From a virus (lineage: Duplodnaviria > Caudoviricetes), in IMG/VR virus record IMGVR_UViG_3300025679_000005: 64,000 nt of DNA. One strand, given 5' to 3'. Shown in pieces: positions 22,065-57,659 of the stretch. The translations under genes and the position numbers were made by a program. Every line of letters starts with the position of its first letter. Positions within the stretch are counted from its first letter, which is position 1. Below the pieces are notes generated by a model, which was not told the origin of the DNA, made no database searches, and saw only the letters and a program-made list of their open reading frames with translations.

Positions 22065-23414
22065 TTGAGCAACCGAGACCTTATCAAGCGCGTAATGGCG
22101 AAGACCGCTACTGTTCAAAAGACAGCAGCGTTTCCGCCATTCGCTGAGAACGGCCCGCCCCAACCGCCTGAAGAGGATGGGGGTGGTGGCAACAGTCCTG
22201 TTGGCGGCAAGAGGAACATTCCGAAGGATCATCCTTACGATCCCAAGGCTTTGAAGCCGATGGCCACAGCCCTCTGGGCAGCCAGTGTCAGTTTGGGCCA
22301 CGCCCTGACGGCTTATCGTCACCTCAGCCGCTTGAAATCCGCTACCATCAGCCCTGATGGTATGTTGGGTGGGCGTGGCTACGTCATGGGAGTGCCCGAC
22401 GTACGCAAGAAGCTCTACGCAGCCTGCGAGGCCTTGAGTGCTATCACCGACACCCTCCACGACGAGATCACGGCTCCTCATTGGCGCCCAAAGTTGGCGC
22501 TGTTGGACGAGACTGATGCCGAGGAGATCGAACAGTACCTAGAGAAGTCTCAAGGGATCCTCGACGATCCGGAGGCGGAGGTCGAAGAAGAAGAGGAAGA
22601 GATTGAGGGCGGCAAGGACAAGCCGGAGAAAGAGCCGGAAGAGGCTTCGAGCATGCCAGACGGTGGTAGCGGCAACGAAACCAGCCAGGCTGTCCCGATG
22701 ATGCGCCCGAAAGAGGCCTCCTTCAACCCCTACGATCGCACCGCCAATTCCTCGGTTTCCCCAGGAGCTTTGGGTGGGCCCAGGGTTGAGCACCTAGACC
22801 GTGAAGACCAGCCGGACCCGGAAATGGCCTATGATGGTTGGGGGTATCCCTCAATGATCGAACACCAGGAATCTGAGAATGGTGAGGGTAACCTTAGTGA
22901 TCGCGGAGCTGGTTCGGGTATGCCAGGGGCAGTGACCGACACGACTCCGACGGAGGCCTATGACTTTGGTCTGGGCTACGGAGCTAACGGCCAAGGTGCC
23001 GGTGGTTACGGGAACCCTTCAGGTGAGGGTAACGGCACGAAAGGTGTGTTCGGACCGACCAGCGGCCTTCCAGGCGGTGGCTCAGGGTCGTCCGGGGACA
23101 CCACCCCAGAGTTCAATGCCGAGGTCAGTGATCGTCATTCAATGGATTCACTGCCCAACGATGATCAGCCTCCGGTTGCCCGTTCTGACTATTATCAGGG
23201 AGATAAGGGCAACATGGTGAATGATTCGGGCCCGATGGCTCAATCGGAGATGCCCGCTGAGCCGACCCCAGGTGGCGAGATGTCTCCCAGTATGATGAAT
23301 ACAGACTACACGTACACTGACATGGAAACACCGTACGTACGCTACGACTATACGACCCCCAACTATCGGCCGGATCCCCTCCACAATTGGCCCGAAAAAC
23401 AGCAGACAGGATGA
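22065..23414 (+). CDS. Hypothetical head-region protein, acidic/Gly-Pro-rich C-terminal half
   Basis: 449-aa ORF in the operon; KTA x2, KEAS and YDRTA motifs. Confidence 0.7.
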   Translation: MSNRDLIKRVMAKTATVQKTAAFPPFAENGPPQPPEEDGGGGNSPVGGKRNIPKDHPYDPKALKPMATALWAASVSLGHALTAYRHLSRLKSATISPDGMLGGRGYVMGVPDVRKKLYAACEALSAITDTLHDEITAPHWRPKLALLDETDAEEIEQYLEKSQGILDDPEAEVEEEEEEIEGGKDKPEKEPEEASSMPDGGSGNETSQAVPMMRPKEASFNPYDRTANSSVSPGALGGPRVEHLDREDQPDPEMAYDGWGYPSMIEHQESENGEGNLSDRGAGSGMPGAVTDTTPTEAYDFGLGYGANGQGAGGYGNPSGEGNGTKGVFGPTSGLPGGGSGSSGDTTPEFNAEVSDRHSMDSLPNDDQPPVARSDYYQGDKGNMVNDSGPMAQSEMPAEPTPGGEMSPSMMNTDYTYTDMETPYVRYDYTTPNYRPDPLHNWPEKQQTG

Positions 23415-23417
23415 ACG

Positions 23418-25406
23418 ATGGCTGATCTTGGTGACCTAACAGACTTCATCAAAGAAGGTAGCTCTGGCGTTTCCGACCTCGATTGGTTGGATGTCGACGA
23501 GGCGGAGTACCGCAAGAACGACACTCTCCCCAAGCAGAACCTGGACATTGCTCCAGATCTCATTGCCTTGTGGAGCCACCAGGACCAATCGCCTTCATCT
23601 CTAGTACCCAACAAGGGCGAACCCAAGACGATGGGCGATCTCTCGTCTATCCATGGGCATCTCCGAGCGGTGCCTGAAGACCTGATGCGTACAGCCCGTC
23701 TGGCTATCATGCAGTCGACTGATCCCAAGAAGATCAGCCACGCATTGTCTTCTAGGTACGATGCCAACATCCTCGCAACTGCCAAGACAGCCCTTGCTAC
23801 AGTATTCGCTGAACGGGGCCTCCTTGGTAAGTTGTACATCAGTGCTTCGGACTTCCCGGACTGCAATAAGGGTGGCAAGATTGCCTCCGAGTTCGTTCGT
23901 CGCTTTGCCTTGGATGCTCCTTTCGTTGTCGCAAAGGTTGCGTGCAGCGATTGCGTTCATCGTCAAATCACGGCCAACGGCAGCAGCCATTGCGGGGTTT
24001 TCCACAAGGAACTACAAGTGGAAGTGCCCTACTCCAATGAACTAGCGTCTACGGTAGAGAGGCAACAGGCTTCCAGGGGCAAGGCTGTCCTCGCTTCTAC
24101 GGGAACTACTCCGAAGGAACGTATTCGCCAAGCCTTCTTGGGCCAGGCTTCTACGGGAACTCAGGGCTTCACGGGTATTCCACAGGCCCCTCAAGCAGCT
24201 ATTGCTCAAGGCGATACAAGCCAGCAACTGATTGCGGTTGCCAGCCTCACGAAGAAGCGTGATGCCGAAGGCCAGCAGAAGCTTGCAGCTGCTAAAGCAC
24301 GCCCGATCATCGCTCTCCTCACTAAGGAGATGCTCAAGGGGCATGGCGAGCCCGAACTGGTTCACGCACTTCGTCTAGCCTTCGACTTGACTTTGCTCGA
24401 AGAGACCAAGGCTGAATGGGTGCCCCTCTTCAAGGAGGCTGGCCTGTTCGGTGCGGTTTATTCGAACCAGACAGCCTTTGATGACTGCCGTGAAGGAGCA
24501 GACTTCATCAACAAGCATGGATCGAAGATCCGGGCCATTGTTGCAGGCGAGAAGTGCGGCTCTTGCATCTTCAACAAGGTTGGCCGCTGTATGATGTATG
24601 GGCGTCAGCTAGTGGCATCTGCGGACGCAGTCCTCAATACGCAGACCGTGTCTGCGGTATTGGATGAGCATCGGATCGCTGGCAAACTTCCCCACGATGC
24701 TGCCAAGTACTCATGGGGGGACACCCCCATGGAGGCTCTCAAGGCCATCCACAAGGCTGCTTCTGCACCTTTGGCGTCCTCTGGCCCCAGCGTCCGCAGC
24801 TCAATCGAGAAGGCTTTCTACGGGCAGACTCGTGCGGCAAATACCAGTGACCTGACCAAGCGTGAGATCCTGAAGACTGCTTCGAGGTACATGAACGAAG
24901 GTCTATACGGAGATGACCTTCTCAATGTGCTGAAGAGCCGCTTCGATGTCCGGGATCTCACTGCCACGGCCGGAGATCTCAAGGTCGTGTTGGCGGAACA
25001 AGGCCTACAGGGTATCAAGTTCATCGACCCAACGGTTTACGACGATTACGGCAAGGGTTGTCACACGGCCGCTAGCGCCCATCGTTCACGGGCCGCTGTC
25101 CAATATCTCAAAGTCGGTGACAAGTGCGGTTCTTGCGTTCATCAGACCCGGGTCGGGTTCTGTTCCGTCATCAACAAGCAGTTGGTCGTGGAGCCCCCTT
25201 ACATCGACAAGCTGGCTGAACAGCGTGCGATCTTGGCGTCGGGGAACTCGACGGTGGTTTCCTACGAGAGCCTCATGAACAACGGTCTGAGTATGATGCA
25301 GGAGTATCAGCTCCAGCACGACACAGAGGGTTCCATCGACCTTCAGCCAGAGTTCAAGGTGGGCTCAGACACCATCGAATTCGGGACTCAGAAAGTCAAG
25401 CTGTGA
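23418..25406 (+). CDS. Hypothetical protein with three Cys4 repeat modules
   Basis: 662 aa; repeats FPDC..ACSDC..HC, FDDC..KCGSC..RC, KGC..KCGSC..FC. Confidence 0.75.
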   Translation: MADLGDLTDFIKEGSSGVSDLDWLDVDEAEYRKNDTLPKQNLDIAPDLIALWSHQDQSPSSLVPNKGEPKTMGDLSSIHGHLRAVPEDLMRTARLAIMQSTDPKKISHALSSRYDANILATAKTALATVFAERGLLGKLYISASDFPDCNKGGKIASEFVRRFALDAPFVVAKVACSDCVHRQITANGSSHCGVFHKELQVEVPYSNELASTVERQQASRGKAVLASTGTTPKERIRQAFLGQASTGTQGFTGIPQAPQAAIAQGDTSQQLIAVASLTKKRDAEGQQKLAAAKARPIIALLTKEMLKGHGEPELVHALRLAFDLTLLEETKAEWVPLFKEAGLFGAVYSNQTAFDDCREGADFINKHGSKIRAIVAGEKCGSCIFNKVGRCMMYGRQLVASADAVLNTQTVSAVLDEHRIAGKLPHDAAKYSWGDTPMEALKAIHKAASAPLASSGPSVRSSIEKAFYGQTRAANTSDLTKREILKTASRYMNEGLYGDDLLNVLKSRFDVRDLTATAGDLKVVLAEQGLQGIKFIDPTVYDDYGKGCHTAASAHRSRAAVQYLKVGDKCGSCVHQTRVGFCSVINKQLVVEPPYIDKLAEQRAILASGNSTVVSYESLMNNGLSMMQEYQLQHDTEGSIDLQPEFKVGSDTIEFGTQKVKL

Positions 25407-25795
25407 AAGATAGTCCCGCACGTCGTGTGGTCGCCCGCTTCAAGCAGGCAGACCAGCAACCCGGGGCTCGTCAAAAGGCGTGGAAGAACACCACACCCAT
25501 AAACAAGCCCAAGGGGATCGGCCGAGAAGTGACCAAGGACTACGCCGTGTCCAAGGATGAGGGCGGTGAAGTAGTTGAGGCCGATCGTAGAGATCTCCGA
25601 CCAGAGGATGTCTTCAACGTCACTCCTGACCAAACAGGGGTTCTGAACCTGGCCCAATCGGGCAAGGATCTGTCCAAGGCAATTGAGAAGCAAGTACCTA
25701 AAGACAAGGGCTACGATGTAGTCCGCAATCTGTCGCAGTACCTTATTCGCACCGAGGGGAACGGAGCGGAGGGGACGGCGGAAGGCAAGAAATGA
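25403..25795 (+). CDS. Hypothetical protein with N-terminal RRVVARFKQA motif
   Basis: GTGA overlap; 130 aa. Confidence 0.7.
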   Translation: MKDSPARRVVARFKQADQQPGARQKAWKNTTPINKPKGIGREVTKDYAVSKDEGGEVVEADRRDLRPEDVFNVTPDQTGVLNLAQSGKDLSKAIEKQVPKDKGYDVVRNLSQYLIRTEGNGAEGTAEGKK

Positions 25796-26408: not shown

Positions 26409-29400
26409 GTGGCTGAGAAGAAACGAGAGGGGCTGGTCAATCTAGTCCGGAACGCCAACCAGAAGGTCAAAGCCACTCAAGCTGTGGCCACCAATTCAGG
26501 TGCGGGTGGTGGCGGCCTAGGTGGCGGCCCCAAGATCTTCAGTGTGCTCGAATACATCGAGCAGCCTTGGGGTTTGGCAATGAACCTATACCCTGCCCAG
26601 CGCTTCCTGGTGAAGCTCTATTACAATCTGGAGCTGGACACCAAGATCCCTGACGATCCTAACAAGCGTATCCAAGTCACGGACATGCTCAAGACCAAGA
26701 TCCTGTACGAGCTGTCTGAGAGGGATTACCTGACATACCTCTTCAATGAGGGCCGGTGCAATATCGGGGAGCAGGATCACGACCGACGTGAATTGGTGCT
26801 TTCCATCGGTAGAAGAGGGGGTAAATGCGTCTGTGGGGATACCCTCGTATTGACGAATGACGGCATTCGTCAAATAGCTGATTTAGGGACGGCCCTTGAG
26901 GACGGCTTTTCGCCCTTGGAATTAGGAATAGTCCAAGAAGCAGGCAAGAGGTCCACTTCCGCTGCATTCTACAACGGGGGAGTTAAACCGACTTTCTCAG
27001 TCAAAACAGACTCTGGGTACAGCCTCAAAGGGACGGGCCCCCATCGAGTTAAAGTGCTGACTAAGACAGGTAAAGTCGAATGGGTCTACCTGGATCAACT
27101 ACAGGTAGGCGACTTCGTAGCGATCAACCGCTCGACTGACCTATGGGCGGCCAAATTGATGGATTTACGCCCGTTTCACAATGAAACGGGTCGTAAGGAC
27201 GTTAGACTACCGGAGCTGTTAGACGAGCGTTTAGGCAACTTCATCGGTTACTTGGTTGGTGACGGCACTTGGGGAGACGACCACGCCGTATCTGTGACAG
27301 TGGAGCACCCAGAGACGTGGGCTTACTTGAAGGAAGCCTTTCAGACATTGTTGGGGGAACCCAGAGTCCAGATGGACGAAAGAACTGTAAACACCGGGCG
27401 CCTAGAGTTCTGTAGCGTCAGGGCCCGAAGGTTTTTTGACGATATTGGCTGGAAGCAGGATTGTGCGAGAGATCAGAAGATGATCCCTTGGTCTATTCTT
27501 CAGTCGCCGAAGTCCGTCGTATGCGCCTTCTTGAGAGGTTTATTTGAGACAGATGGGTGTGCCGAGAGTGGTGGTCGAAGCATCACTTTCTCATCAGCTA
27601 GCTTTCGGTTGGCCCATGAGGTTCAGATTGTGCTGCTGAATCTAGGTATCGTCTCGAACGTAGCCCGTAAGTGGAACTCAAAGACAAAAAAACACTATGC
27701 TAATTTGAGGGTCAAAGGCACGAGGTCTAGACGCCTGTTCGCTCAATTGATAGGTTTCGATTCAGATAAGAAGCGCCTGCCAATGCTGGCCTCTTTGGAA
27801 CTTGCTCAAGAGGGTAAGTCTGACACAGAGAGCATTCCACATCAGTACTCGGCAATTCGAGATTGGCTGGAGTCAATACCCAAGGCGGGGCCTGGAGCTG
27901 GGCACAGGCGCTCTAGGCTAAGGGATGTCTTAGCCAACACCTGTAAGCCTAGTTCAGGTGAAGATCTGACCTACCCACGGCTGGCCAAGGCAATCAGTGT
28001 GGCTAAGGAAATGGGGGCAGGGGAACAGGAAACAGCCCACTTCGAAGAGTTGGCCAGATTGGACTACTTCTACGATGCCGTGACCTCAGTAGAACAAGGG
28101 GAAGACCAGGTTTATGATTTGACCGTACCTGATGGGGAGGCATTCGTTGCGAATGGTATGACCAATCACAACACAACTCTGTCGGGAATCTTCGCTTCCT
28201 ACGAGGTGTACCGACTTCTTAATCTGTACAATCCCCAGGAATACTATGGCCTGCCTAACGGCAACCGTATCCAGATCATCTCGGTAGCTACGGACAAGGA
28301 CCAGGCAGGACTGCTCTTCAACGAAGTGGCCTCCCATATCGTGAAGTGCGAGTACTTCAAGCCGCATACAGCGTCCAATACCCAGACGTTTTTGAACTTC
28401 CGCACGCCTTACGACATCGAGAAGTTTGGTACTGATGTCCGCAACGGGGATGGCAAATACCAGTCCTTGAACGGTAAGGCCACCATCCGCGTCACCTTCA
28501 AGGGTGCAAACGGCAAGGGGCTCCGTGGTGCAGGTAACGTCGTTATCATCCTCGACGAGGTTGCCCACTTTCTTGACAAGGGTGGGGGCTCTGCCGAGGA
28601 AGTGTACGGTGCCGTAGTGCCCTCATCGGCTGCCTTCTCCAAGAAGGATCAGAAGACTAAGCGTGCTTTGATTGATCCGATTACGGGCATAGAAGCCCCT
28701 GTGGAGAGCAGGGTCATTCTCATCTCATCTCCCTTGGGCAAGTCCGGCTTGTTTTACGACAAGTTCGATCTGGCTATGCGTGGCGGTCCCGGAGCACACA
28801 ACATCCTTGCTATCCAGGCCCCTACCTGGGAGATCAATCCGACGGTCCCCTCCTCCTACTACAAGGAGAAGTACCACGCGAATCCGATCACCTTCGTGAC
28901 TGAGCACGGCGCTCAGTTCAGCGATCAGGTACGTGGTTGGATTGAGCGTGAGTCGGATCTACAGGCCTGCATCAACCCAATACTACAGCCCAAACTAGCT
29001 GGGACCCCCAGGTCACCCCATCAAATGGGAATCGACGTAGGCCTTGTAAACGACGGTACAGCCATCGCCATTACACACGTTGAGGGGGACAAGATCGTCC
29101 TCGACTACCATGAAATATGGTATGCTGGAGAGAATTGGCGTGAGGCTAACCCGCATCTGGACTTCAGTGTGGCGACAGACTACGCCAAGAGCCTGGGGAA
29201 TGTCCAGCGCATCGACTTTGATGCCATCGGGGAATGGATCTTGGCTCTGTGTAAGAGATTCCACATCACCGCCGGCATCTTCGACCGTTGGAATGGCATC
29301 CCCTTGGAGCAGTTCCTGCACAAGCACGGTCTGAAGCAATTCACCTCGGATTTCTATACTAGAGACAACACTAGTAAGATGTACCAGACGGTGAAGGAAT

Positions 29401-29771
29401 TCATGTATGACGAGAAGTTGGAGTTGTACGACTTCCCGATTCCTGAGCGTGCCAAGGATGGCAGCAAGCATTCGCCATTGATCGCTGAGCTTTTGACCCT
29501 GCAAGCTGAGCAAATAAGCAAGAACATTGTGACCGTTCAGGCCCCCAACAAAGTTGGAGCCCACGACGACTTGAGCGATGCCTTGATTCGATCCATCTGG
29601 CTGAGTTCGGAAGTCATGATGAATCGAAAGCACACGGCCCACGGTCAGGCTTACCGCCCAGCGGTGGCTTCGGCCATGACCCCTCAAAGGTACCAGATGT
29701 CCCGCATGCTCAAGCATGGTGGTGGCGGAGATCGCAGTCTAAGCGGCCGTCGCCCAATTAGGCAGAGGTAA
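26409..29771 (+). CDS. terL: Terminase large subunit (intein-containing)
   Basis: Walker A reconstituted after splicing as GRRGGK|TT, Walker B VIILDEVAH, ISSP, nuclease MGIDVG...DGTA, HDDLSDA. Confidence 0.9.
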   Translation: MAEKKREGLVNLVRNANQKVKATQAVATNSGAGGGGLGGGPKIFSVLEYIEQPWGLAMNLYPAQRFLVKLYYNLELDTKIPDDPNKRIQVTDMLKTKILYELSERDYLTYLFNEGRCNIGEQDHDRRELVLSIGRRGGKCVCGDTLVLTNDGIRQIADLGTALEDGFSPLELGIVQEAGKRSTSAAFYNGGVKPTFSVKTDSGYSLKGTGPHRVKVLTKTGKVEWVYLDQLQVGDFVAINRSTDLWAAKLMDLRPFHNETGRKDVRLPELLDERLGNFIGYLVGDGTWGDDHAVSVTVEHPETWAYLKEAFQTLLGEPRVQMDERTVNTGRLEFCSVRARRFFDDIGWKQDCARDQKMIPWSILQSPKSVVCAFLRGLFETDGCAESGGRSITFSSASFRLAHEVQIVLLNLGIVSNVARKWNSKTKKHYANLRVKGTRSRRLFAQLIGFDSDKKRLPMLASLELAQEGKSDTESIPHQYSAIRDWLESIPKAGPGAGHRRSRLRDVLANTCKPSSGEDLTYPRLAKAISVAKEMGAGEQETAHFEELARLDYFYDAVTSVEQGEDQVYDLTVPDGEAFVANGMTNHNTTLSGIFASYEVYRLLNLYNPQEYYGLPNGNRIQIISVATDKDQAGLLFNEVASHIVKCEYFKPHTASNTQTFLNFRTPYDIEKFGTDVRNGDGKYQSLNGKATIRVTFKGANGKGLRGAGNVVIILDEVAHFLDKGGGSAEEVYGAVVPSSAAFSKKDQKTKRALIDPITGIEAPVESRVILISSPLGKSGLFYDKFDLAMRGGPGAHNILAIQAPTWEINPTVPSSYYKEKYHANPITFVTEHGAQFSDQVRGWIERESDLQACINPILQPKLAGTPRSPHQMGIDVGLVNDGTAIAITHVEGDKIVLDYHEIWYAGENWREANPHLDFSVATDYAKSLGNVQRIDFDAIGEWILALCKRFHITAGIFDRWNGIPLEQFLHKHGLKQFTSDFYTRDNTSKMYQTVKEFMYDEKLELYDFPIPERAKDGSKHSPLIAELLTLQAEQISKNIVTVQAPNKVGAHDDLSDALIRSIWLSSEVMMNRKHTAHGQAYRPAVASAMTPQRYQMSRMLKHGGGGDRSLSGRRPIRQR
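26826..28172 (+). mobile_element. Intein with LAGLIDADG homing endonuclease (449 aa) in the terminase Walker A
   Basis: Starts CVCGDTLV, GTGPHRV block B, GYLVGDG and GLFETDG motifs, ends VYDLTV...FVANGMTNHN followed by T. Confidence 0.92.
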
Positions 29772-29775: not shown

Positions 29776-30030
29776 ATGGATGACCCCCGTCCCCTACCAC
29801 TTGAATTTGCGAATCGAGTAATCCGGCAGTTCCTGGATCACTTGTTGGGTACGGATCTGATCGCCAAACCGAAGGACCTATTGAAACTTAGGGTTCTTTT
29901 TCGGCATCTAGGGGGAAATTGGGAACAGCTCCAGTTGGGGGACATCAAGCAGCTCCTTCTGTTGGAGAAGCTATTATCGAAGTGGGGTCAGAGCAAAGAC
30001 CGCGAACGTGAACCGAAGGACGGTGGATGA
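29776..30030 (+). CDS. Hypothetical protein
   Basis: 84 aa, RBS AGAGG, overlaps the next gene. Confidence 0.6.
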   Translation: MDDPRPLPLEFANRVIRQFLDHLLGTDLIAKPKDLLKLRVLFRHLGGNWEQLQLGDIKQLLLLEKLLSKWGQSKDREREPKDGG

Positions 30031-30551: not shown

Positions 30552-30554
30552 AAG

Positions 30555-32298: not shown

Positions 32299-32745
32299 AT
32301 GCCCCAACTAGACCCTAAAGCCATTCTCGCGGCGTTGACTGCTCAGCAGCCCGCCAATGAGAAGGACATCGATGAGCTGGTACTGCGAGTTCAAGAGGCT
32401 CGCAAATCAGCCGATGAGGCTATTTCCAAGCTGTTCGAGGTATCGAGCGAATTACGTGAAAAGGTTCGCAGGGCCCCTACAGCAGGCGCCCACAGCCATA
32501 TGATTTTTGCCAATGCCTACATTCGCCTAGCCGCTGCCTTTGCACAAGGCCTCAAGCGGCTGGTCTCCACTGATCGTCTTCTTGTTCGAGCCAAATCCGA
32601 ACAAGAAGAGGCGGCTAGGGATGAGGCCCAGCAGAAGGCTCAGGACGACGTGCGTAGGGCAAAAAAGCAGGCGGCCAAGCTAGTGCAGAGGACTGCCAGC
32701 GCTTTTGATGAACTGTATGGAGAGGTAATTTCAGATGCCAAGTGA
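32299..32745 (+). CDS. Hypothetical helical protein
   Basis: 148 aa, immediately upstream of the portal. Confidence 0.65.
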   Translation: MPQLDPKAILAALTAQQPANEKDIDELVLRVQEARKSADEAISKLFEVSSELREKVRRAPTAGAHSHMIFANAYIRLAAAFAQGLKRLVSTDRLLVRAKSEQEEAARDEAQQKAQDDVRRAKKQAAKLVQRTASAFDELYGEVISDAK

Positions 32746-47106: not shown

Positions 47107-49694
47107 TGCGTTGCAAAGGTTGTGGTCAAGACTTCGAAGCTGTTAATTCAGTACAGGAGTTCCACGACAAGGCCTGTCATGGTCGTTGGCGACGAAAGCA
47201 ACAGAGGCTGCTGGTGCCAGCTAAGACAAGTCGGGTGTTTGTCTGCAAGACTTGTGGGAAGTCTTGGAGTACTGAGAGCCTTGGGAACTTCTCCAAGTGC
47301 CCCAGTTGTTCAGAGCTGAAGGTCAAGGAAGCCAGAACCAAACAATGCCTCTATCGGCATTGCCTTCAGGTTTTTCTTGATGAATCGTCTCAAAATTCTG
47401 CTAAATTTTGCTGCCCAGAGCACCGTCGCCGCGAGAAGCTTTTTCGATCTGGAGTCGCCAAGGATATCTCTTACTTCAGGGATCCCTCACGACGGTTAGA
47501 TCCGTTGTGCGTAACGTGTGGCAATAGATGGGAGCCTGGCGAAGGGGACCGTGCGGTCAGGTGCCAGTCCTGTAGGGCTGCTGCTAGGCAAAAAGTTTGC
47601 ACCCTTTGTCACGAGTCGTTTGAAGACTCTTCCAAGAAGAATACTCGTAAGGCGCATCCTTTTTGCGTACGGCGAGTGCTGGGGGTCAAGGCGGACCCAA
47701 ATCGAAGTGCCCGACGGTCTCCTAAATTGGAGCTTCGAAGACTCCAACAGGTACGTTCTGGACTTCATGGTAGTTTGGCTGATCTGGCTACTGTGAAGAA
47801 GGGAAGCCAGACCTGGTGGGGCCGAGTTTCTGAGCTTATTTTTAGTCGATATCGGCCTCAAGCTTCAGACCTCAATCTGGATGTGGGTAATCGCGCCCCA
47901 TTTGATTTTCAAGATCCCTCACTGGGTCGAATTGATGTGAAGGGGTCCCGAGGACGTATCTCCAAGGAAGGCCGTCTTTCCTGGTCCTCCTCAATCGAGG
48001 CTCTGAAAGAATCCTGCGACTACCTGTTCCTAGTGGGTTATGCCCCAGACAGGGTCGAGGTTGTTCGTTTGTGGCTGATCCCTTCGATGGAACTTCCTGA
48101 CAGGTGCATCACGATGTCTCCTGGTAGCAATGAGTACTCCTGGTCTTCCAGGGAGGCTACGTCCTCTTGGGGTCTGGTGGCAGCTCAGAAGGTGCTTGAA
48201 GAGTGCATAGCTCTTCCTGAAGCGCCTAGGCCAAAAGATCGGTTCGAATGGTTGGATGACCCCTCTAAGCTTCACGACAGGGCTCCTGGACATCGGGGTC
48301 GTAGGGGTGAGCTGCTTTACAAGGAGATGTACCCTGAAGCTAGGGACGTGAATCGTACTGATGGCTCAACCGCCTCTTATGACTTTGAGCATCCAGACGG
48401 TACTAAAGTTAACGTCAAGACCTCAAGGTACCTCCTGAGGTCTAACAGCTCGACTTATAGGTGGTCCTTCTCCAGAGGTGCCTTGAAGGTCCACAATTGT
48501 GACCTGTACTCTTGCTTGTGTTTGGATGCTGGAGGTACTCTTATACGAGAGTACCGGATCCCTGCCCATGTTTTGACTAATCGTCGAGTGATACACATTT
48601 ACGGACACGAAGGGCAGTGGCAGCCTTATCGTGTTCAATTGCCTAGAGAAGGACTGAAGGTGTCTACCGGCAGTTGGAGTCCGATTTCTAAGGACTTGAC
48701 GGTAGGTATAGCGACAGGAGCTATCAGGAATTTCCCCACTGGTTCAGCGGATCTGGAGTCCGATGTACTGAGGACCCTCCTTAGGGTGCAGTTCCCTTAT
48801 CGGGACTACGGTGAAGAGCGCCTTTTGGGAGACTTCCTGGCGTTACGCAATAGCAAAGCCGTGCGAATTGAGGGAGGCGTCGTCACGGGTCAGTCTAACG
48901 CGGGCCTATCGGTGTGTGACGCTTTTTTCAAGCATCGCTACGAGGCCACTTACAGGGACTCTCTTAGCATCAAGACCGCTTGGGATGACCCCAAGTGGTT
49001 AGAGAAGGCCATCCACTTCCAGGTCACAGTGGGTGACCCTCTCTTACCCTGGAGCGTTTTTAGAGCCTTGAAGGCACTTCTGAGGACCCCATCCAATTTC
49101 CGCCCGTCGGTTGCCAAGGCACTCGTTGAGAAGTATGCCCCTGAGGGGGGTTTGGTCTTAGATCCTTGTGCGGGTTACGGCGGCCGAGCTTTAGCCACAT
49201 TGGCTTTGGGTCGTCGTTATCTGGGGATCGATCCTCACCCTGAGGCTCAGAAGGCTCATCTTGAGATGGCCAAATTCGTAGGGTTGGAAGATCGGTTGGC
49301 TTTTCACAACAGTCCGTTTGAAGATGTCACTTTGGATGAGGCTGTCGCGGATATGGCCATCACCAGTCCTCCTTATTTCTCCATCGAACGCTATGCGGAG
49401 GACCCTAAGCAGAGTTGGGTGCGCTACCCTGCGTGGGATGCCTGGCGGGACATGTTTTTGCGGCCTCTTGTGCACAACGTCTACCTAGCTTTGCGACCTG
49501 GGGCGGTTTTTTGCCTTAATGTGGCGGACGCCAAGTTTGGTACTAAAATTTGCCCCGTGGTTCAAGAATCTCTGATATTCGCTCAACAGGCCGGATTCGT
49601 TCGGGAGCCTGATATCACTATGCCTCTCAAACGCTTTGGAAAAAATGTGAGGACGGAGCCAATCCTCGTTTTCCGTAAACCCCAGACCCCGTGA
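47106..49694 (+). CDS. Multi-zinc-finger / two PD-(D/E)XK-like nuclease domains / amino-DNA methyltransferase fusion
   Basis: Five Cys clusters; SE...FDFQD...IDVK; GE...YDFEH...VNVK; motif I LVLDPCAGYGGR; motif IV ITSPPY. Confidence 0.75.
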   Translation: MRCKGCGQDFEAVNSVQEFHDKACHGRWRRKQQRLLVPAKTSRVFVCKTCGKSWSTESLGNFSKCPSCSELKVKEARTKQCLYRHCLQVFLDESSQNSAKFCCPEHRRREKLFRSGVAKDISYFRDPSRRLDPLCVTCGNRWEPGEGDRAVRCQSCRAAARQKVCTLCHESFEDSSKKNTRKAHPFCVRRVLGVKADPNRSARRSPKLELRRLQQVRSGLHGSLADLATVKKGSQTWWGRVSELIFSRYRPQASDLNLDVGNRAPFDFQDPSLGRIDVKGSRGRISKEGRLSWSSSIEALKESCDYLFLVGYAPDRVEVVRLWLIPSMELPDRCITMSPGSNEYSWSSREATSSWGLVAAQKVLEECIALPEAPRPKDRFEWLDDPSKLHDRAPGHRGRRGELLYKEMYPEARDVNRTDGSTASYDFEHPDGTKVNVKTSRYLLRSNSSTYRWSFSRGALKVHNCDLYSCLCLDAGGTLIREYRIPAHVLTNRRVIHIYGHEGQWQPYRVQLPREGLKVSTGSWSPISKDLTVGIATGAIRNFPTGSADLESDVLRTLLRVQFPYRDYGEERLLGDFLALRNSKAVRIEGGVVTGQSNAGLSVCDAFFKHRYEATYRDSLSIKTAWDDPKWLEKAIHFQVTVGDPLLPWSVFRALKALLRTPSNFRPSVAKALVEKYAPEGGLVLDPCAGYGGRALATLALGRRYLGIDPHPEAQKAHLEMAKFVGLEDRLAFHNSPFEDVTLDEAVADMAITSPPYFSIERYAEDPKQSWVRYPAWDAWRDMFLRPLVHNVYLALRPGAVFCLNVADAKFGTKICPVVQESLIFAQQAGFVREPDITMPLKRFGKNVRTEPILVFRKPQTP

Positions 49695-49712
49695 AAGCCG
49701 CTTCGTCATAGC

Positions 49713-49739
49713 CCTTTTATACCCCTCCTAAGGCGTAGG
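49713..49739 (+). promoter_or_regulatory. Candidate late promoter
   Basis: CCTTTTATACCCC-tcct-AAGGC-g-TAGG, matches 44026-44051. Confidence 0.5.
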
Positions 49740-49743
49740 GCAT

Positions 49744-49908
49744 ATGGACGACCCTCTCCGCCTGAAGCTAGTGTCCCTCCAGAGCCGCCTTTTGGACATG
49801 GCTTTGGAAATAGATCGGCTTTTGGCTCCGGAACTACTCGAATCTGGGGAGGCCCCGGAAAAAATCACCCTTCCGGCTGGACCTCCTGACTCCGAAAGCG
49901 GTGTATGA
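49744..49908 (+). CDS. Small 54-aa protein, below the ORF-track cut-off
   Basis: MDDPLRLKLVSLQSRLLDMALEIDRLLAPELLESGEAPEKITLPAGPPDSESGV; TAGGG RBS-like sequence; fills the intergenic gap. Confidence 0.55.
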   Translation: MDDPLRLKLVSLQSRLLDMALEIDRLLAPELLESGEAPEKITLPAGPPDSESGV

Positions 49909-49915
49909 GCTGGGG

Positions 49916-50254
49916 ATGTCCGACGAACTCCAGGCCAAGACCTCTGAAGAACTGCTACAAATAAAGCTGGATTTGGAGAAGGACATCGACTCGATCAAGT
50001 CCCAGATCGAGGCTGCTCAGGTGAAAGCCCGGGAGACTGGGGTTTACGCCGACTCGATGTGGTGGGGTAAGGTCAAGTGGGCTTTGAAGAGCAAGGGCAG
50101 GCAATGCCAGCAGATTCAGCTGCTCCTACGTCAGAAGAATCGAGCGGTTCAGACGGGCTTGGAGACTACGTTCGTGACCACAGCCCGTGAGTTGTTACCG
50201 CCCGAGCAATTCCAGGCGATCATGAATTCGGCCAAGTCACGAATCAGCCTGTAA
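49916..50254 (+). CDS. Hypothetical coiled-coil protein
   Basis: MSDELQAK..., heptads, WWGKVKWALK. Confidence 0.65.
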   Translation: MSDELQAKTSEELLQIKLDLEKDIDSIKSQIEAAQVKARETGVYADSMWWGKVKWALKSKGRQCQQIQLLLRQKNRAVQTGLETTFVTTARELLPPEQFQAIMNSAKSRISL

Positions 50255-50283
50255 TTCTCCTCCTATAGTATTGCTTAGGGGCA

Positions 50284-50817
50284 ATGGCTGAAATCAAGAA
50301 GTTGTGGTTGGTGTCAGACGCACCCAAGGTAGACGGGAATTTGGACTACCTTTGGGAGGACCCCTCAATGAATGGGGAAGATCATCGTCTAGCCCACTTC
50401 TGCGGTGCCCTTCAAGAAGGTGGGTACAGTGTGGATCAGTTTGCAATGGTCTATGCTGGTGGTGGCAAGCGAGTTCTCAGTGAGCACCCTAAGGCCTCGT
50501 TGGCTAAGAGCGTGGTTGCAAGGTTCAAGGGTGCGTCCACGTACGACCATGCCTTCCAGACGATGGTGCAGGTGGTTGACGACCTAGAGGCAGCTTCTAA
50601 GAAGATCCCCAAGGCACTTGATGCTTTGAAGGATCTGAAAGAGCATGCGGCGAAGGACCCTGATGTTGCTGGTCAGCCCGGCTTGAATAAGCACGCACCT
50701 GAGCAACAGATCGGCTTCCTGACCGACAAATTCGAGGCAGCCCAGAAAGCTGTTGAGAACCTGGTTGAACAGTACGAGGACTCGAACCAGTCCTTCCTAC
50801 GTATGAAGCTTCGCTGA
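50284..50817 (+). CDS. Hypothetical protein with internal SVVARFKGA motif
   Basis: 177 aa, RBS AGGGG. Confidence 0.65.
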   Translation: MAEIKKLWLVSDAPKVDGNLDYLWEDPSMNGEDHRLAHFCGALQEGGYSVDQFAMVYAGGGKRVLSEHPKASLAKSVVARFKGASTYDHAFQTMVQVVDDLEAASKKIPKALDALKDLKEHAAKDPDVAGQPGLNKHAPEQQIGFLTDKFEAAQKAVENLVEQYEDSNQSFLRMKLR

Positions 50818-50824
50818 GGGTCCC

Positions 50825-52000
50825 GTGATCCCTCGCGTAGTAGCCCGTTTCAAGGAAGCTGTCCGTAAGGGACAGGCTTCCCGAGTGGCTGCACGCTATG
50901 TGTCGGCAATGGCTGAGGACATCACCCCATTCCTCAATGGGTTCCGTCGGGCTGTTGAGGCCATGGAAAACAAGTGGACTGAGCTGGACGGTAAACGTGA
51001 GGACTCGATGACTGCTGTGAGGGCCATGGTCTTCTTGCCAGGTGCCTTCGAAGTCCTTCAGAATATAGGCAAAGCCCACCGTATCTTCTGGGGGATCCTT
51101 CAGCAGTACAAGATCTCCTCGACCTCGGATCGAAAGGTCATCGAACAGGCTTCGAAGGAGTTCTCCAAGCAACGCATCCAAAAGCCTAAGCGTGAAGTCG
51201 CTATGGAGGTCCTTAAGAAGAAGGCTGATCTGTATCGGACTTACTTGGAGGCTGCTGAAAGGGTCGTCAAAAAGGGAGAGCTTCATACTGACGAGACCTC
51301 GGGGACGACTGATACAGCAGGGTGTTTCACGTTAGTCAATGCTGGTGGTTTCTCGCCTGAGCAGATGGCAGATGTGGTCAAGGTCGTTGATAAGGCTTCG
51401 TCTCTGCTCAAGGCTAAGGGGTTCGGCAAGGTCTGCTACGGCACTGTCCAGGTGACTAACAACATCTCGAATGCGAAGATTTTGGCTTTCTATTCCGTGC
51501 AGACGGATGAGATGTTTGTTCGAGGGAGCCTCAAAGGTAAGCAGGGCCCGGCAGTTGGCACTGTCATTCACGAACTAGGGCACCGACTCCACGTCCAGTT
51601 CCTTAAGAGCCAGAACAACCAAATTAAGTCCATGTATGATGCCTTGCTTAGAGGTGAGGATGTGGCAACCCAGGAGATGCTGGAGGACAGGTCTAACTGG
51701 CCGAAGCCTGGGGACACACATGCTCAAAAGGACGGCAGTGTATTCGTAGTGGATCGAGTGGGTCTGAGTCGAACCAACGATTGGGTTGTCTTCACGTACC
51801 TGCAAGATGATCCAAAGATCAAGGGGACGATGGCCTTACAGGGCTGGCTTGGTAACAACGGCATCAAGAAGAAGGAAGTCTTCATTACGCCCTATGCCAA
51901 GACGAACTACAGCGAGAACTTTGCTGAGATGTTTGAGCACTACATCTTGGGGACTTTGCCTGACGGGCAGATCCAGATGCTCGAAGCCATCATCAAGTGA
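50825..52000 (+). CDS. Zincin-like metallopeptidase (lethal-factor/MPTase-like) with duplicated N-terminal RVxAR[FY] tag
   Basis: TVIHELGHRLH, downstream TPYAKTNYSENFAEMF third-ligand motif. Confidence 0.72.
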   Translation: MIPRVVARFKEAVRKGQASRVAARYVSAMAEDITPFLNGFRRAVEAMENKWTELDGKREDSMTAVRAMVFLPGAFEVLQNIGKAHRIFWGILQQYKISSTSDRKVIEQASKEFSKQRIQKPKREVAMEVLKKKADLYRTYLEAAERVVKKGELHTDETSGTTDTAGCFTLVNAGGFSPEQMADVVKVVDKASSLLKAKGFGKVCYGTVQVTNNISNAKILAFYSVQTDEMFVRGSLKGKQGPAVGTVIHELGHRLHVQFLKSQNNQIKSMYDALLRGEDVATQEMLEDRSNWPKPGDTHAQKDGSVFVVDRVGLSRTNDWVVFTYLQDDPKIKGTMALQGWLGNNGIKKKEVFITPYAKTNYSENFAEMFEHYILGTLPDGQIQMLEAIIK

Positions 52001-52007
52001 GGGGTAG

Positions 52008-52448
52008 ATGACGGTTTCATCACGTAGAGTCGTCGCCAGGTACCTGGAAGCCAAGGGCACTGGCGCCTCGCTGATTCCTGAGTTTACCAAGGCCAAGGAG
52101 AAGCTGGTCGAAGGTAGTTCAGAGGCTATGCTCGCTTTCATGGACCGTGTCCTCCCACAGATGTCTACGGAGTTGGTGGCCTGGCTTAAGAGTGATGGGC
52201 CTAAGTATGCTAGAGAGCTGATGACTTCTTACCTCGTGGGTATGGTCACGGAGAAGAACCTCCATGACGGGATCAAAGGCTCGAAGGATTTGAAGGTGGT
52301 CACTGACGACCTCCTACACGGACCTCTGTCGGTTACTCCCTACGGAGCTACTAAGCCCATGGAGAACTACGCTGAGGCTTTCGCCCACTACGTGTTGGGT
52401 ATGGACATGCCTCAGGAACTGGCAGACATCCTAGCGTCTGAAAAGTGA
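52008..52448 (+). CDS. Truncated or degenerate zincin-like paralog with N-terminal RRVVARYLEA
   Basis: TPYGATKPMENYAEAF matches the C-terminus of 50825; no HExxH. Confidence 0.6.
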   Translation: MTVSSRRVVARYLEAKGTGASLIPEFTKAKEKLVEGSSEAMLAFMDRVLPQMSTELVAWLKSDGPKYARELMTSYLVGMVTEKNLHDGIKGSKDLKVVTDDLLHGPLSVTPYGATKPMENYAEAFAHYVLGMDMPQELADILASEK

Positions 52449-52451
52449 CCC

Positions 52452-53270
52452 TTAGTCGACGACTTGGATCTTGCTGATCCTGACGTTCCTGGGGCTGTAC
52501 ACGGCGACTTCGGGAATGCCCCTGACGAGGTCAGGCCCATAGTAGAAGACGCTGTCATACCCCTGCTGGCGGGCTTTACGGGCCTTGGCCTGGCTCTTGG
52601 TGACGAGGGGTTTGCTGACGGTCACGGTTACCGTATAGACCTTGGGGCGGTAGACCTTGGAATTCAGGCCTACACGGTCTAGGTCATCGTAGATGTAGCC
52701 GGGCATCCCACTGCTCATGTTGAAGATGTTGACTGGGTCATCCCCTCCGAGCGTCTTGGTCTTGCTCCCGATGATATAGCCGGCGATGTCTTGAAGCTCG
52801 TTGGAGTCTAAGCCGCCTATGTATTTGTCGAAGCCGGCCATGTCGACTTGACCGACACCTGGAGAAGGGTTCTCATTCCAGAAGCCGTTTTCCTTCCAGA
52901 AGATGTCCCAGCCGTCGTTGCCGTGAGTGTAGAGCGTCTGCAAGAAGTCACCGGCTGGACCGTTCTTCCGCTTCAAATCGTTGATGATGCCGGGGTCGAA
53001 GCCCATGTTGCGGTTGGCTCCGGCGTACTGTTCGGCAACGATCTTCGATGGGGACAAGAAGATGCCCCGCCCGTAGTAGCCGTTCACCAACTCGTCTCGA
53101 CTTGCGTTCAGGTCGAACTTGCGAAAGAGCTTTGTGGTTCCGTGATACAGGGTGACCGGAGTGCCATTGGTCAGGCCTTCTAGGTGGTACTCAGCCAGGA
53201 TCTCTTCGGGAGGGCGTTCCTTTGCCGTGCGATCATAGCTGTAGAAGGTTCGGTCGTACTTGTAAGTCAT
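52452..53270 (-). CDS. ADP-ribosyltransferase-like protein (ART-PolyVal-type pattern)
   Basis: TLYHGTT..F..FD, YYGRGIFLSP...AEQYA, GYDSV...EVAVYSPRNVRI; the only credible minus-strand gene in the window. Confidence 0.65.
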   Translation of the reverse strand: MTYKYDRTFYSYDRTAKERPPEEILAEYHLEGLTNGTPVTLYHGTTKLFRKFDLNASRDELVNGYYGRGIFLSPSKIVAEQYAGANRNMGFDPGIINDLKRKNGPAGDFLQTLYTHGNDGWDIFWKENGFWNENPSPGVGQVDMAGFDKYIGGLDSNELQDIAGYIIGSKTKTLGGDDPVNIFNMSSGMPGYIYDDLDRVGLNSKVYRPKVYTVTVTVSKPLVTKSQAKARKARQQGYDSVFYYGPDLVRGIPEVAVYSPRNVRISKIQVVD

Positions 53271-53296
53271 GCTTACTAGATCCGTTCACAAGAAGA

Positions 53297-53332
53297 TTGA
53301 GTTTGAGGCTGGGTTTGGCTATACTCTAGAGA
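53297..53332 (+). promoter_or_regulatory. Sigma70 promoter, leaderless transcript
   Basis: TTGAGT (53297-302), 17 nt, TATACT (53320-25), 6 nt, ATG (53332). Confidence 0.6.
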
Positions 53333-53679
53333 TGCGGACTTACCAATTCGAGAGATTACTGGTGGGGTTGGTGCTGACTGCTGTGTGGTTTTGCACAGGA
53401 TGCCAGGGCATCGAGTTGTTAGGTAGCTTGGCTGTGCTCGCCACCTTCTGCCACGCCCAAATAGGGGATAGAATGGCTGAGCGTCAAGCAGCTAGGGAGA
53501 CTCCTGACGTTCATTGTTACGAATGGTCTAACCGGTACTATGTAATGAAGGAGGGCCTGTGGTTTGGGTATTTCGTCGTTCACCGTAATTGGGCAGCCCT
53601 TGTAGGGGTGGCTGTCTTCCTGGCTTACCCCTTATGGCGTGTGTGGTGGCGACGCCATTACCCTCTAGACCGCGTTTGA
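53332..53679 (+). CDS. Small membrane protein
   Basis: Hydrophobic segments LLVGLVLTAVWFC, LLGSLAVLATFC, WAALVGVAVFLAYPLW. Confidence 0.65.
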   Translation: MRTYQFERLLVGLVLTAVWFCTGCQGIELLGSLAVLATFCHAQIGDRMAERQAARETPDVHCYEWSNRYYVMKEGLWFGYFVVHRNWAALVGVAVFLAYPLWRVWWRRHYPLDRV

Positions 53680-53753
53680 TATTTCATTTGTATGCACATC
53701 CCTTTAGAGGCCCTCTCTAACTTTCGTTCTGGGCTTCTGGGAGATGTATTCAA

Positions 53754-54942: not shown

Positions 54943-55747
54943 GTGTCTATGGTTGTGGGTCGCATCTACCTAATCACCAACAAGGTGAACGGGAAGCAGT
55001 ACGTTGGGCAGACGAAGAAGACCATCCAAAAACGTTGGAACAGCCATATGTGTCTAGCTAAGAAGGGCAGCTCTCTTGCCCTTCACAATGCCATCCGGAA
55101 GTACGGTAAAGACAAATTCACTCTAGAGTGCCTTGAGGAGGTGTCAGGGTCCCATGTCGATCTGATGGCCGCAGAAATACGTCAGATAGCCTTGCATTCA
55201 TCTGTATACCCTTCAGGATATAATCTGACTCATGGTGGGGATGGTGTCGACTTCACCGTTCCCGAAATACGGGACAGAATGTTAGAGGCTGCTAAAAAAA
55301 AGAGCTTTAGACCCCAAATGGATAGAGGCTAATGCTGAAGCGGCCAGGAAACGAGCGGAAGACCCTGAATGGAAGATGGCTATAAGTGTTGCAGCTAGGA
55401 AACGAGCGGAAGACCCTGAATGGCAAGCGAATCAATTTGTGGGTGCTCAAAAACGTTCCGCAGACCCTGAATGGTACCCAGCTATACTTGAAGGGGCCAG
55501 GAAACGAGTAGAAGACCCCGAGTGGCGGGCGAATCAATCCGAGGGTGCTCGTAAACGTTCTGCTGACCCTGAATGGCCATCTAAAAATGCTGAATCTAGG
55601 CGGTTGGCTAATATAGCTTGTTCAGCTAAGGCTCTGGCCAAGGATGCCCTGTGTACCCCAGAAGAAACAGCCAAGCGTGTCCGGCTGAGAGAGAACTCTA
55701 GACGTAGTAAGACCAAAAAGCGATTGAGGGCCACGGAGACGGGCTGA
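54943..55747 (+). pseudogene. GIY-YIG endonuclease with 17-aa repeats, interrupted by a +1 frameshift in an A8 run
   Basis: GRIYLITNKVNGKQYVGQT in frame 0; the repeats continue in the +1 frame from A8 at 55294-55301 (KKRALDPKWIEANAE...), matching paralog 57656. Confidence 0.8.
55343..55590 (+). repeat. 51-bp tandem coding repeats
   Basis: Units start at 55343, 55394, 55445, 55496, 55547 (gc.aggaaacg...gaccctgaatgg). Confidence 0.85.
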
Positions 55748-55803: not shown

Positions 55804-57357
55804 GCGGATTACACAGACGGTTGTCTAGAGCGTACGGGCCAAGTCAAAACGGCCTCCGCTACCATTTACCTCGTTGAGGAGGTTGGCGACGCTCGTTTAC
55901 GCTGTGATCAGCTCATACGTTACCTTGATGAGGCCGTGCAGCTCATTGAAAAGTCTGATAAAAAGGACCATTTCTTTGAGGTAGCCGGCCATCTGATCAA
56001 GGGGATCCCTGAAACAGCCTTCAAGCTGCAAAAGGCCCTACAGGCCGTTGCCCTGGCCACAGATCGTATCGATTACGAAGAACTCAAGCAAGAACTGCGA
56101 CCTGAAAAGGTAGAAGAACTCGAACGGGTCCTACAAGATGTTAGGATTAGGCCCGTACCCCATCGTTCGGAGACACCAATGAACCCCAAGCAAGCCGCCA
56201 AAGCCCTTCGCGAACTAGTCCGTATTGCCAATACCGAGGGCAGTCTCCCTGTCTACGAGGTGGCTGAATTCCTGACCACATTGGATCCTCCTGGGGTGGT
56301 TGCTGCGATCGAGCGCAAGGCTGCGGACAAGCTGGAGAAGCTGGCAGAGATGCTTGAGGACCCGAATCAGGAGCCCCTCAGCCGCGTTCGTTTGGCAGCG
56401 GTCATTCGTAGGGTTGCCATGGAAGCCGTGATCGACGATGCAATTCGTCAGGCAAGCACCCCTCGTTTGACGCAAGACCACATGCAGTTGGCGGACGCTC
56501 AAGAGGTCAAGGATAAGTTCAAAGAGTCCAATCCAGACATCTCCGAAGAGTCTTTGAACGAGATTGCTGAGCAGTGGAAGAAGAACAAGGACGTGGTCAA
56601 GGACAAGGCCGCCGGATTTGACGACTTTCCGAGTGTGCCTGCCCTTTTTGAAAGCATCAAGGACAAGGCTATTGTAGCTGTTAGGGCGGCTAACTCGAAG
56701 CGTTGGCGCCAGGCTCTCCTCGACCTCTCTTTCATTGTCGATGACATTGGGACCATCCTTGTGCAGATGGGGGCAATGGATGTAAGTAAGAGTGAGGCAT
56801 TAAAACGAGAAATCCGTAAGGTGATCCCCCATGCGGCCGAGTCCCTTGAGCAATCGGCTCCGATGATGATGGCTGCTTCTGAAGGTCCAGCCTGGGGTGT
56901 AGAAGCCACTGAAGAGAAGCGTACCAAGTTCGAGAAGGATAAGCCAGCTGACCCCACAGAGTCCATGTCCCCCAGCGATGCTGCGAAATGGAAGACTCAG
57001 ACCGAGGAGAACAAGGACAACTTCAAGGCTGCTACGGACGGAGAAGACGCTGCCCGTCGTTCCCGTTTTGAGCAGGGCGTGTCGGCCGACCCCACCCAGA
57101 ACATGGACCCAGAGGATGCCAAGAACTGGAAAGAAGAGCACGACAAGAACAAGGACAACTTCAAGGAAGCCAGTGGGGATGCTGTGGCAGCGGGCAAACT
57201 CACCACGCACCTCGAAGGCAAGAGCGGCCACACCATGTGTGGTGAGCAGTCGGATCCAAAAACGCTCGTGAAGTCTGTGAAGGACGCCTCTTGCTACTAT
57301 TGCAAGCAGGCTTGGGAGAAGAAGCACTCCAAAGCTGCTGTCGACTGGAAAGCATGA
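55801..57357 (+). CDS. Head-region-type protein with internal repeats and a C-terminal Cys/His motif
   Basis: KTAS, RQAS, KEAS motifs; two R.[KR]FE....ADPT..M.P.DA..WK...NKDNFK.A repeats; internal RBS+ATG at 56179. Confidence 0.75.
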   Translation: MADYTDGCLERTGQVKTASATIYLVEEVGDARLRCDQLIRYLDEAVQLIEKSDKKDHFFEVAGHLIKGIPETAFKLQKALQAVALATDRIDYEELKQELRPEKVEELERVLQDVRIRPVPHRSETPMNPKQAAKALRELVRIANTEGSLPVYEVAEFLTTLDPPGVVAAIERKAADKLEKLAEMLEDPNQEPLSRVRLAAVIRRVAMEAVIDDAIRQASTPRLTQDHMQLADAQEVKDKFKESNPDISEESLNEIAEQWKKNKDVVKDKAAGFDDFPSVPALFESIKDKAIVAVRAANSKRWRQALLDLSFIVDDIGTILVQMGAMDVSKSEALKREIRKVIPHAAESLEQSAPMMMAASEGPAWGVEATEEKRTKFEKDKPADPTESMSPSDAAKWKTQTEENKDNFKAATDGEDAARRSRFEQGVSADPTQNMDPEDAKNWKEEHDKNKDNFKEASGDAVAAGKLTTHLEGKSGHTMCGEQSDPKTLVKSVKDASCYYCKQAWEKKHSKAAVDWKA

Positions 57358-57659
57358 TTCCCATGAAGACCGCAGACTACGATCGCACCGCCCGGGGAGT
57401 CTCCGCTGACAAGCTCCTCAAGGATATGGAAGAGAGCGTCGAGAAAATGCTTGATGCTCGTGTCAGCATTCGAAATGTCCACTTGGCACTGGGCGAAGTC
57501 GCCAACGATGCCACGGGCACGATCTTCAAGGACACCTACAATGACCCAGAGTCACGTAAGGTATCCAAGACCTTGTACGATCTCGACTGGGCCATTGGCG
57601 AGGCCTTTCACGCTGTAGAGCATCTTGAGCGCGAACTCAAGAAGAAGCTGATCAAGTGA
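57354..57659 (+). CDS. Hypothetical helical protein with N-terminal KTA-DYDRTA motif
   Basis: ATGA overlap at 57354. Confidence 0.65.
   Translation: MIPMKTADYDRTARGVSADKLLKDMEESVEKMLDARVSIRNVHLALGEVANDATGTIFKDTYNDPESRKVSKTLYDLDWAIGEAFHAVEHLERELKKKLIK

Follow-up and report, generated by a model that had tools for sequence, protein, structure and literature searches.

Two short peptide tags recur on mostly unrelated proteins encoded in a 64,000-nucleotide stretch of DNA (hereafter the window) from the IMG/VR record IMGVR_UViG_3300025679_000005 (Caudoviricetes), which covers the head-morphogenesis genes of a huge phage (contig 464,302 bp). The first, here called the RV tag, follows the consensus A-[RK]-R-V-[VA]-x-R-[FY]-x-x-A and usually lies 3–10 residues past the initiator methionine, while the second, the YD tag, reads M-x-Y-S-Y-D-R-[RT] and stands at the extreme N-terminus. 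Each tag spans ~10 residues, is often present in tandem, and is followed by a polar or Pro/Gly-rich linker. Judged from sequence, RV and YD are portable, functionally equivalent modules. This bears out the modular address label proposed in the initial annotation of the window: either tag occurs at the same junction in two unrelated enzyme families, switches between the two are repeated, and at least 25 unrelated clusters carry them. From the gene positions, the types of cargo and the analogy with phages T4 and P1, we further suggest that the tags may carry finished enzymes into the phage head, to be injected along with the DNA, a destination that we propose with about even confidence.

Within the window, the tags and tag-like motifs are distributed as follows (proteins are named by the first position of their open reading frame, ORF; ART, ADP-ribosyltransferase):

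25403–25795, + strand: 130 residues, unknown fold; RV tag RRVVARFKQA at 25421–25450 (residues 7–16), then a polar Pro/Gly-rich linker
36124–39000, + strand: 958 residues, charged, low-complexity, in the portal–protease interval; RV-like motif at 36316–36345 (residues 65–74)
40811–41170, + strand: 119 residues, directly upstream of the protease; C-terminal RV-like DRVIDRFFG at 41126–41152
50284–50817, + strand: 177-residue fusion protein; KSVVARFKGA at 50506–50535 (residues 75–84)
50825–52000, + strand: 391-residue zincin; RV tags PRVVARFKEA at 50831–50860 (residues 3–12) and SRVAARYVSA at 50879–50908 (residues 19–28)
52008–52448, + strand: 146 residues; RV tag RRVVARYLEA at 52023–52052 (residues 6–15)
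52452–53270, − strand: ART, 272 residues; tandem YD tags TYKYDRTFYSYDRTA at 53223–53267 (residues 2–16)
57354–57659, + strand: 101 residues; ADYDRTA at 57372–57392 (residues 7–13)
22731–22745, + strand: internal YDRTA in protein 22065; unsupported as a tag

Every motif position given in the initial annotation was recovered in the sequence. The pattern RV[VA]AR[FY] has four exact matches against 0.005 expected in 20,906 coding residues (Poisson P 3e-11), all of them in the N-terminal 25 residues of their proteins (25403, 50825 twice, and 52008), and none in the other reading frames of the window. YDRTA was seen three times against 0.012 expected (P 3e-7), twice N-terminally, i.e., in the ART and in 57354 as had been reported; two of these copies share an identical 15-nucleotide string. 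The codons of five RV copies differ at synonymous sites and the DNA upstream of them is unrelated, and selection therefore acts on the peptide rather than on the DNA.

The same tags were found in relatives of this phage. Its clade is abundant, with >2,000 capsid proteins at ≥86% identity in the protein database, from soils, sediments, peat and sludge. A close relative (REL; 376.5 kb, joined from two overlapping IMG/VR contigs) has a capsid protein 97.6% identical to that of the window and is syntenic with the whole of it, and a metagenome scan with the capsid protein yielded 80 loci at 86–100% identity; loci other than REL were taken from within 10 kb of the capsid gene. Among nearest records, the capsid protein is 84% identical in the uncultured 485-kb phage LR745208.1, 47% in Tunturiibacter phage Tunturi_5 and 38% in Bacillus phage G. 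A position-matrix scan for the RV tag returned 14 sites in the window and REL, 11 of them in the first 40 residues (column-shuffled controls: ~3, with 0.7 N-terminal), and 27 sites in the 80 metagenomic loci, 21 of them N-terminal (controls mostly 0). The RV consensus holds even where the identity of other proteins has fallen to 35–55%. Conservation in orthologues, on which the initial annotation had staked its proposal together with a genome-wide motif search, was thus observed in REL, in the 80 metagenomic loci and in LR745208.1, where several N-terminal RV copies occur, though raw counts show no excess. In Tunturi_5, the RV pattern was no commoner than the control. A DNA scan of IMG/VR for the exact peptide RVVARFKEA gave no match, and one for VVARFKEA retrieved two relatives only, plus chance matches.

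When the first 35 residues were removed, tagged proteins fell into 25 clusters unrelated by BLASTP, many of which are small non-enzymes of 57–130 residues. The earlier statement that the tag-bearing proteins are otherwise unrelated holds for these clusters, at least 25 in number in REL and the 80 metagenomic loci, and fails for one pair: the C-terminus of 52008 is a partial paralogue of the C-terminal module of the zincin 50825 (25% identity, E 3e-5, zincin residues 252–376), without HExxH. A homologue of 52008 in LR745208.1 likewise opens with an RV tag. The REL orthologue of 25403, an ORF whose first codon overlaps the preceding stop, retains the tag as RRIVVRFKQA, and that of 57354, whose ATG at 57354 overlaps the upstream stop codon, opens with a YSYDLTA version.

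Orthologues also clarify the copies that are not N-terminal in the window. The motif described as internal to 50284 is present, but it is really the former N-terminal tag of a separate 119-residue protein, since both halves of the fusion occur as separate genes: residues 1–70 match a 117-residue gene in locus L056 (94% identity), and residues 70–177 match a standalone 119-residue, RV-first protein found directly upstream of the protease in loci L089 and L085. Two looser copies in the initial annotation, RIAQRF in 36124 and RVIDRF in 40811, gained weight. In orthologues of 36124, RV motifs that match the consensus follow a conserved GGS stretch at the corresponding position, and up to three further copies occur near residues 207, 381 and 700–733. 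This protein is a candidate for an internal protein of the head or an ejection protein, and for a hub with several tags. The motif of 40811 is kept in REL as NRLVDRFLG, and its orthologue in locus L118 has an N-terminal YD tag instead. Protein 22065, by contrast with these, loses its place among the proposed bearers: its PYDRTA is deleted or replaced in a 72%-identical orthologue, and its RVMAKTA, although conserved, is off-consensus and has no aromatic residue.

Exchange between the two tags was evaluated in the zincin and ART families. The zincin orthologue of REL is 62% identical from residue 28 on, with two YD tags replacing the two RV tags. An alignment of 78 zincin homologues taken from contigs of huge phages contains 42 with RV, 28 with YD (often in tandem), 8 with neither and none with both. 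Each tag runs up to one shared, conserved junction of the family, and a tree computed without the tag columns requires at least seven RV/YD switches. For the ART, a motif scan of 120 homologues found 42 with RV, 37 with YD and 41 with other or no tag, and a tree of 82 homologues (28 RV, 32 YD, 22 unlabelled) requires at least six switches, compared to a mean of 20 for shuffled labels. Structure models from AlphaFold2 (AF2) show confident folds that start only beyond the tags: the predicted local distance difference test (pLDDT) is 92.6 from residue 31 of the zincin, with residues 1–30 at only 44–61 in a loose helix, and 89.9 from residue 21 of the ART, with residues 1–20 in a low-confidence coil (44–65 over the tag regions of both enzymes). 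Given these low-confidence tag regions and the repeated switches, we conclude that the tags are modules added to complete folds, and that evolution treats the two as equivalent. Evolution also serves as a proxy for portability, with swaps at a fixed junction and tags carried along in gene fusions.

The two tags are chemically distinct. Residues 0, 3, 4, 7 and 10 of RV are small or hydrophobic, with Arg at 2 and 6, i.e., the periodicity of an amphipathic helix. We infer a basic amphipathic helix with Ala0, Val3, Val/Ala4, Phe/Tyr7 and Ala10 on one face and Arg2 and Arg6 beside it, while the YD tag is predicted to be an extended Tyr/Arg-rich stretch. A small RV-tagged, Cys-containing protein occurs alone, with 57 residues in REL (L030:11790–11963) and 86 in L056 (13329–13589), and also precedes the zincin in P0272 and the ART in P0369 as an in-frame fusion; possibly it represents a larger carrier module within the same address system. 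In 50825, the tandem tag resembles the outcome of a deletion that fused the zincin to the tag of this small protein; P0272 and P0369, in which the small protein is whole, are intermediates. In ART homologues without RV or YD (P0390, P0413–P0415, P0419, P0451, P0458), a third recurrent N-terminal pattern of ~28 residues was observed, roughly RSRVIRLAH, then a Pro-containing turn, then LLPLLKTA, which could represent an additional type of tag or a longer variant of RV.

The zincin 50825 has an HELGH motif and a distal Glu, and H249, E250, H253 and E364 are invariant in the 78 homologues. These residues make up an intact HExxH motif and a third metal ligand on a zincin core; Foldseek against PDB gave weak matches to the zincin core only and no significant match for the whole protein, and matches to Pfam Peptidase_Mx were below cut-off. 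The product of 52452–53270 is an ART-PolyVal protein (Pfam PF18760, 39.2 bits against a cut-off of 31.2), in which H43 and E254 are invariant among homologues and whose model is PARP-like (Foldseek, tankyrase PARP domains, probability 1.0, E 2e-4). ART-PolyVal and zincin domains are parts of polyvalent proteins thought to be virion-packaged in other phages, and Alt of T4 is a head-packaged ADP-ribosyltransferase (PMC5512222); here, ART and zincin are encoded apart, each with a single domain, and neither is a polyvalent protein. One classical polyvalent protein of a virion module is gp321 of Tunturi_5 (L002:433–4521; 1,362 residues), which by Pfam comprises a SprT-like zincin, a 2H phosphoesterase, three ART-PolyVal domains and a GNAT domain, and for which the deposited annotation as a MutT/NUDIX hydrolase is misleading. 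Pfam and PHROGs gave no family for 25403, 50284, 57354, 36124, 22065 or 23418.

We next consider where the tagged proteins may go. The main head genes of the window are the following:

26409–29771, + strand: large terminase
32735–36088, + strand: portal
41175–44012, + strand: prohead (head maturation) protease; phrog_18299, E 1.4e-10; Tunturi_5 head maturation protease
43981–45339, + strand: probable scaffolding protein, encoded after the protease and before the capsid protein; translation likely begins at Met30
45420–46019, + strand: decoration-like protein
46054–46935, + strand: HK97-fold major capsid protein, 293 residues; phrog_2522, E 1.5e-52

The scaffold has conserved N- and C-terminal parts around a Gln/Glu-rich middle and no family match in Pfam or PHROGs; the protease matches phrog_18299 only, with no Pfam match and no solved relative.

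Loading into the head is favored by the positions of the tagged genes, their apparent translational coupling to head genes, the types of cargo and the parallels with T4 and P1. Five of the window's tagged genes share the strand of the head genes, which they overlap or abut, and the ART gene is on the opposite strand. Nine of the 14 tagged genes of REL fall in a 33-kb head module (binomial P 4e-7, for module boundaries set afterwards). Small RV- or YD-tagged proteins occupy the slot just upstream of the protease in several relatives. The portal–protease interval, which in T4 contains small prohead-core genes, here encodes a large protein with one to several RV motifs.

Under the mechanism that we propose, RV and YD would be two portable docking tags at protein N-termini, joined to their cargo by linkers and recognized by a receptor inside the assembling prohead, for which the conserved capsid protein, the scaffold or the core are candidates. 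Tagged proteins made from late head operons would be trapped within the head and exit with the DNA, in the manner of the internal proteins and Alt of T4 and of DarB of P1, and the tags would replace the covalent linkage used by giant polyvalent proteins. The prohead protease would be the candidate tag-processing enzyme, removal of the tags being an unsupported possibility. Over 62 loci (L054–L133), the capsid protein has a median identity of 94.5% and most of its columns are invariant, compared to clade-wide identities of 55% for the scaffold, 47% for the protease and 35% for the 36124 family (47–63% across scaffold, protease and decoration protein). Such extreme conservation suggests an unusual constraint on the shell protein, and in combination with the constant tag consensus it would fit a capsid receptor. 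A complex prediction pairing the capsid protein (86-row alignment) with a 40-residue RV-tag alignment gave no answer (score 0.00, controls absent) and is evidence neither way.

Several observations weigh against head loading. In REL, four or five of the tagged genes are found away from the structural region, one of them beside a ClpX-like gene, and a YD-like N-terminus is found on one protein amid tail/baseplate genes. The coexistence of both tags in one genome means that a single receptor is not guaranteed, and the apparent association with head genes is biased, since loci other than REL were sampled no more than 10 kb from the capsid gene. Cleavage of the tags is likewise unsupported: no motif common to the tags and the capsid protein or scaffold could be established, and the phage G proteome paper gives no processing sites relevant to these tags. 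The x-x-A ending that the initial annotation had read as a putative cleavage motif is not supported as such: the residue after the RV tag varies, and YD tags are usually YDRR across homologues, with no conserved Ala. The Ala just before the RV tag is as conserved as its tenth-position Ala, a conservation explained by the packing of a helix on one face.

Rather than the capsid, the tags may serve as docking or recognition signals for another phage machine, e.g., a ClpX-like AAA+ unfoldase (for recruitment, unfolding or timed turnover) or some other hub or compartment, an alternative that we consider rather unlikely. ClpX recognizes short N- and C-terminal peptides, and in REL a ClpX homologue (L035:16077–17318; G001 116077–117318; AAA_2, ClpB_D2-small, ClpX zinc-finger) lies immediately upstream of a tandem-RV gene; several tagged genes are located outside the head module. 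However, this adjacency was observed once only, ClpP was not found in REL or in the complete LR745208.1 genome, most tagged genes sit in head operons, and the portal–protease slot is repeatedly tagged. The types of cargo, moreover, resemble known injected effectors (PMC5512222).

It is less probable still, and in our view quite doubtful, that the tags are N-terminal pro-peptides or regulators of stability or activity with no address function. Flexible extensions ahead of catalytic domains would suit such a role, and zincins and other proteases often have inhibitory pro-peptides. Yet these two peptides are shared by 25 or more unrelated clusters, among which small non-enzymes are numerous, and RV repeats are internal to a large low-complexity protein. 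The interchange of chemically different tags on both a protease and an ADP-ribosyltransferase is likewise hard to fit with active-site-specific inhibition.

It is very improbable that the shared peptides stem from chance or from events at the DNA level, such as recombination cassettes or a common promoter-leader, with no selection on the peptide itself. Tagged genes do concentrate in a shuffled island (see below), gene fusions occur at or near tags (the 50284 fusion and the 50825 tandem), and two YDRTA copies are identical over 15 nucleotides. Against this, the RV copies show synonymous differences and unrelated upstream DNA, the consensus outlasts the divergence of other proteins to 35–55% identity, other frames hold no matches, and the chance expectation is 0.005; the reading as a DNA-level repeat is largely refuted by the codon data and the conservation across the clade. 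Finally, an export signal, Tat-like twin-arginine or Sec, is hardly credible for RV despite the Arg-Arg near the N-terminus and the terminal Ala of many copies, as the absence of a hydrophobic core after the tag, where residues are polar, Pro/Gly-rich or charged, rules out a Tat or Sec signal, the spacing from Arg-Arg to the aromatic residue is unlike the Tat consensus, YD tags have no signal-peptide features, and the RV motif is also internal and C-terminal.

Head loading may also be extended to an address code, although we consider this unlikely and advance it as speculation. RV and YD would dock at different prohead sites or stages (e.g., capsid lumen versus portal-proximal core), 36124-type proteins would act as the hub, and possession of a tag would by itself mark every injected effector (~3% of genes) of a CasPhi-bearing, globally distributed clade of huge phages. 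In a bolder variant, the ClpP-less ClpX-like unfoldase would recognize the tags and feed the proteins into the head.

The surroundings of the tagged genes are themselves variable. Most tagged cargo genes are located at 46936–53700, 3′ of the capsid gene, in a shuffled island whose gene content and order vary (window versus REL versus L056) even where capsids are 98–99% identical. In REL the island includes a gene resembling those of homing endonucleases; in the window it encodes a nuclease/methyltransferase fusion of 862 residues. Three GIY-YIG endonuclease paralogues stand among the structural genes (54943–55332, 57656–58483 and 61446–62282). The terminase, portal and protease each contain one large insertion (~residues 142–576, ~345–854 and ~103–524, respectively), all missing from REL; the insert of the protease is an intein, given its Hint and LAGLIDADG domains. 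The terminase–portal interval (30027–32283) encodes three tandem paralogues of ~174–187 residues each, with three copies in REL and one homologue elsewhere in the head region of LR745208.1. A putative late-promoter word, TTTTTACTTAT, occurs twice in the window, no better than chance.

If the tags do load the head, a ten-residue motif would predict the injected proteins of uncultivated huge phages from sequence alone. Among the tagged proteins are metallopeptidases, an ADP-ribosyltransferase and many proteins without an assigned function, all of which would be candidate host-takeover or anti-defence factors of the first minute of infection. With two natural, interchangeable tags in many variants, these phages also offer a design set for placing foreign cargo in very large capsids. 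Even if the destination differs, the repeated swaps on orthologues reveal a sorting system in these phages.

Searchable literature yielded no description of such tags in huge phages, and the tags can be compared with several known systems. In T4, the capsid targeting sequence (CTS) is 10–20 residues long (PMC5694885), and that of the internal proteins IPI–III is credited to Mullaney and Black 1996 (in PMC5694885 and PMC9024508). Like the CTS, RV and YD are short, portable N-terminal peptides on unrelated proteins, their genes are tied to the head cluster (portal, small core proteins, protease, scaffold, capsid), and the cargo includes an ADP-ribosyltransferase. The T4 sequence is not known to resemble either consensus, and RV and YD are at best analogues of it. 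The present phages differ further in having two chemically distinct, interchangeable tags per phage with common tandem duplication, internal and C-terminal copies, and no detected cleavage site shared with structural proteins, as well as a small HK97-type capsid protein, a separate scaffold, and a protease that matches one PHROG family only. For DarB of P1, the N-terminal 30 residues suffice to package a reporter protein (PMC9024508), so that a stretch of <30 residues sends a large anti-defence enzyme or a reporter into the capsid; unlike here, where two consensus tags serve dozens of families, the P1 signal is on a single protein and needs other Dar proteins.

Other systems resemble the tags in part. 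Encapsulins also use a short peptide and a flexible linker to bring enzymes of many kinds inside a shell of HK97 fold, and an extremely conserved capsid protein of HK97 fold is the candidate receptor here, whereas encapsulin peptides are usually C-terminal, with another consensus, and the tags here are N-terminal. The polyvalent proteins found in phages and in conjugative elements (PMC5512222; Tunturi_5 gp321) combine the same ART-PolyVal and zincin-like domains in virion gene clusters, but as one giant polypeptide rather than as separate, individually tagged proteins. The propeptides of phiKZ/SPN3US-type phages (PMC5694885, PMC10052503) are likewise N-terminal extensions on many head-internal proteins and are linked to prohead assembly, although they are mostly long (up to ~130 residues), protein-specific, and defined by a protease cleavage motif. 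Taken together, the tags would act like the T4 and P1 signals, without homology to either, and they differ in that no cleavage consensus was found, in the frequent tandem copies, the internal and C-terminal copies and the small tagged carrier domain, and in the use of two unrelated tags that are interchangeable within one phage.

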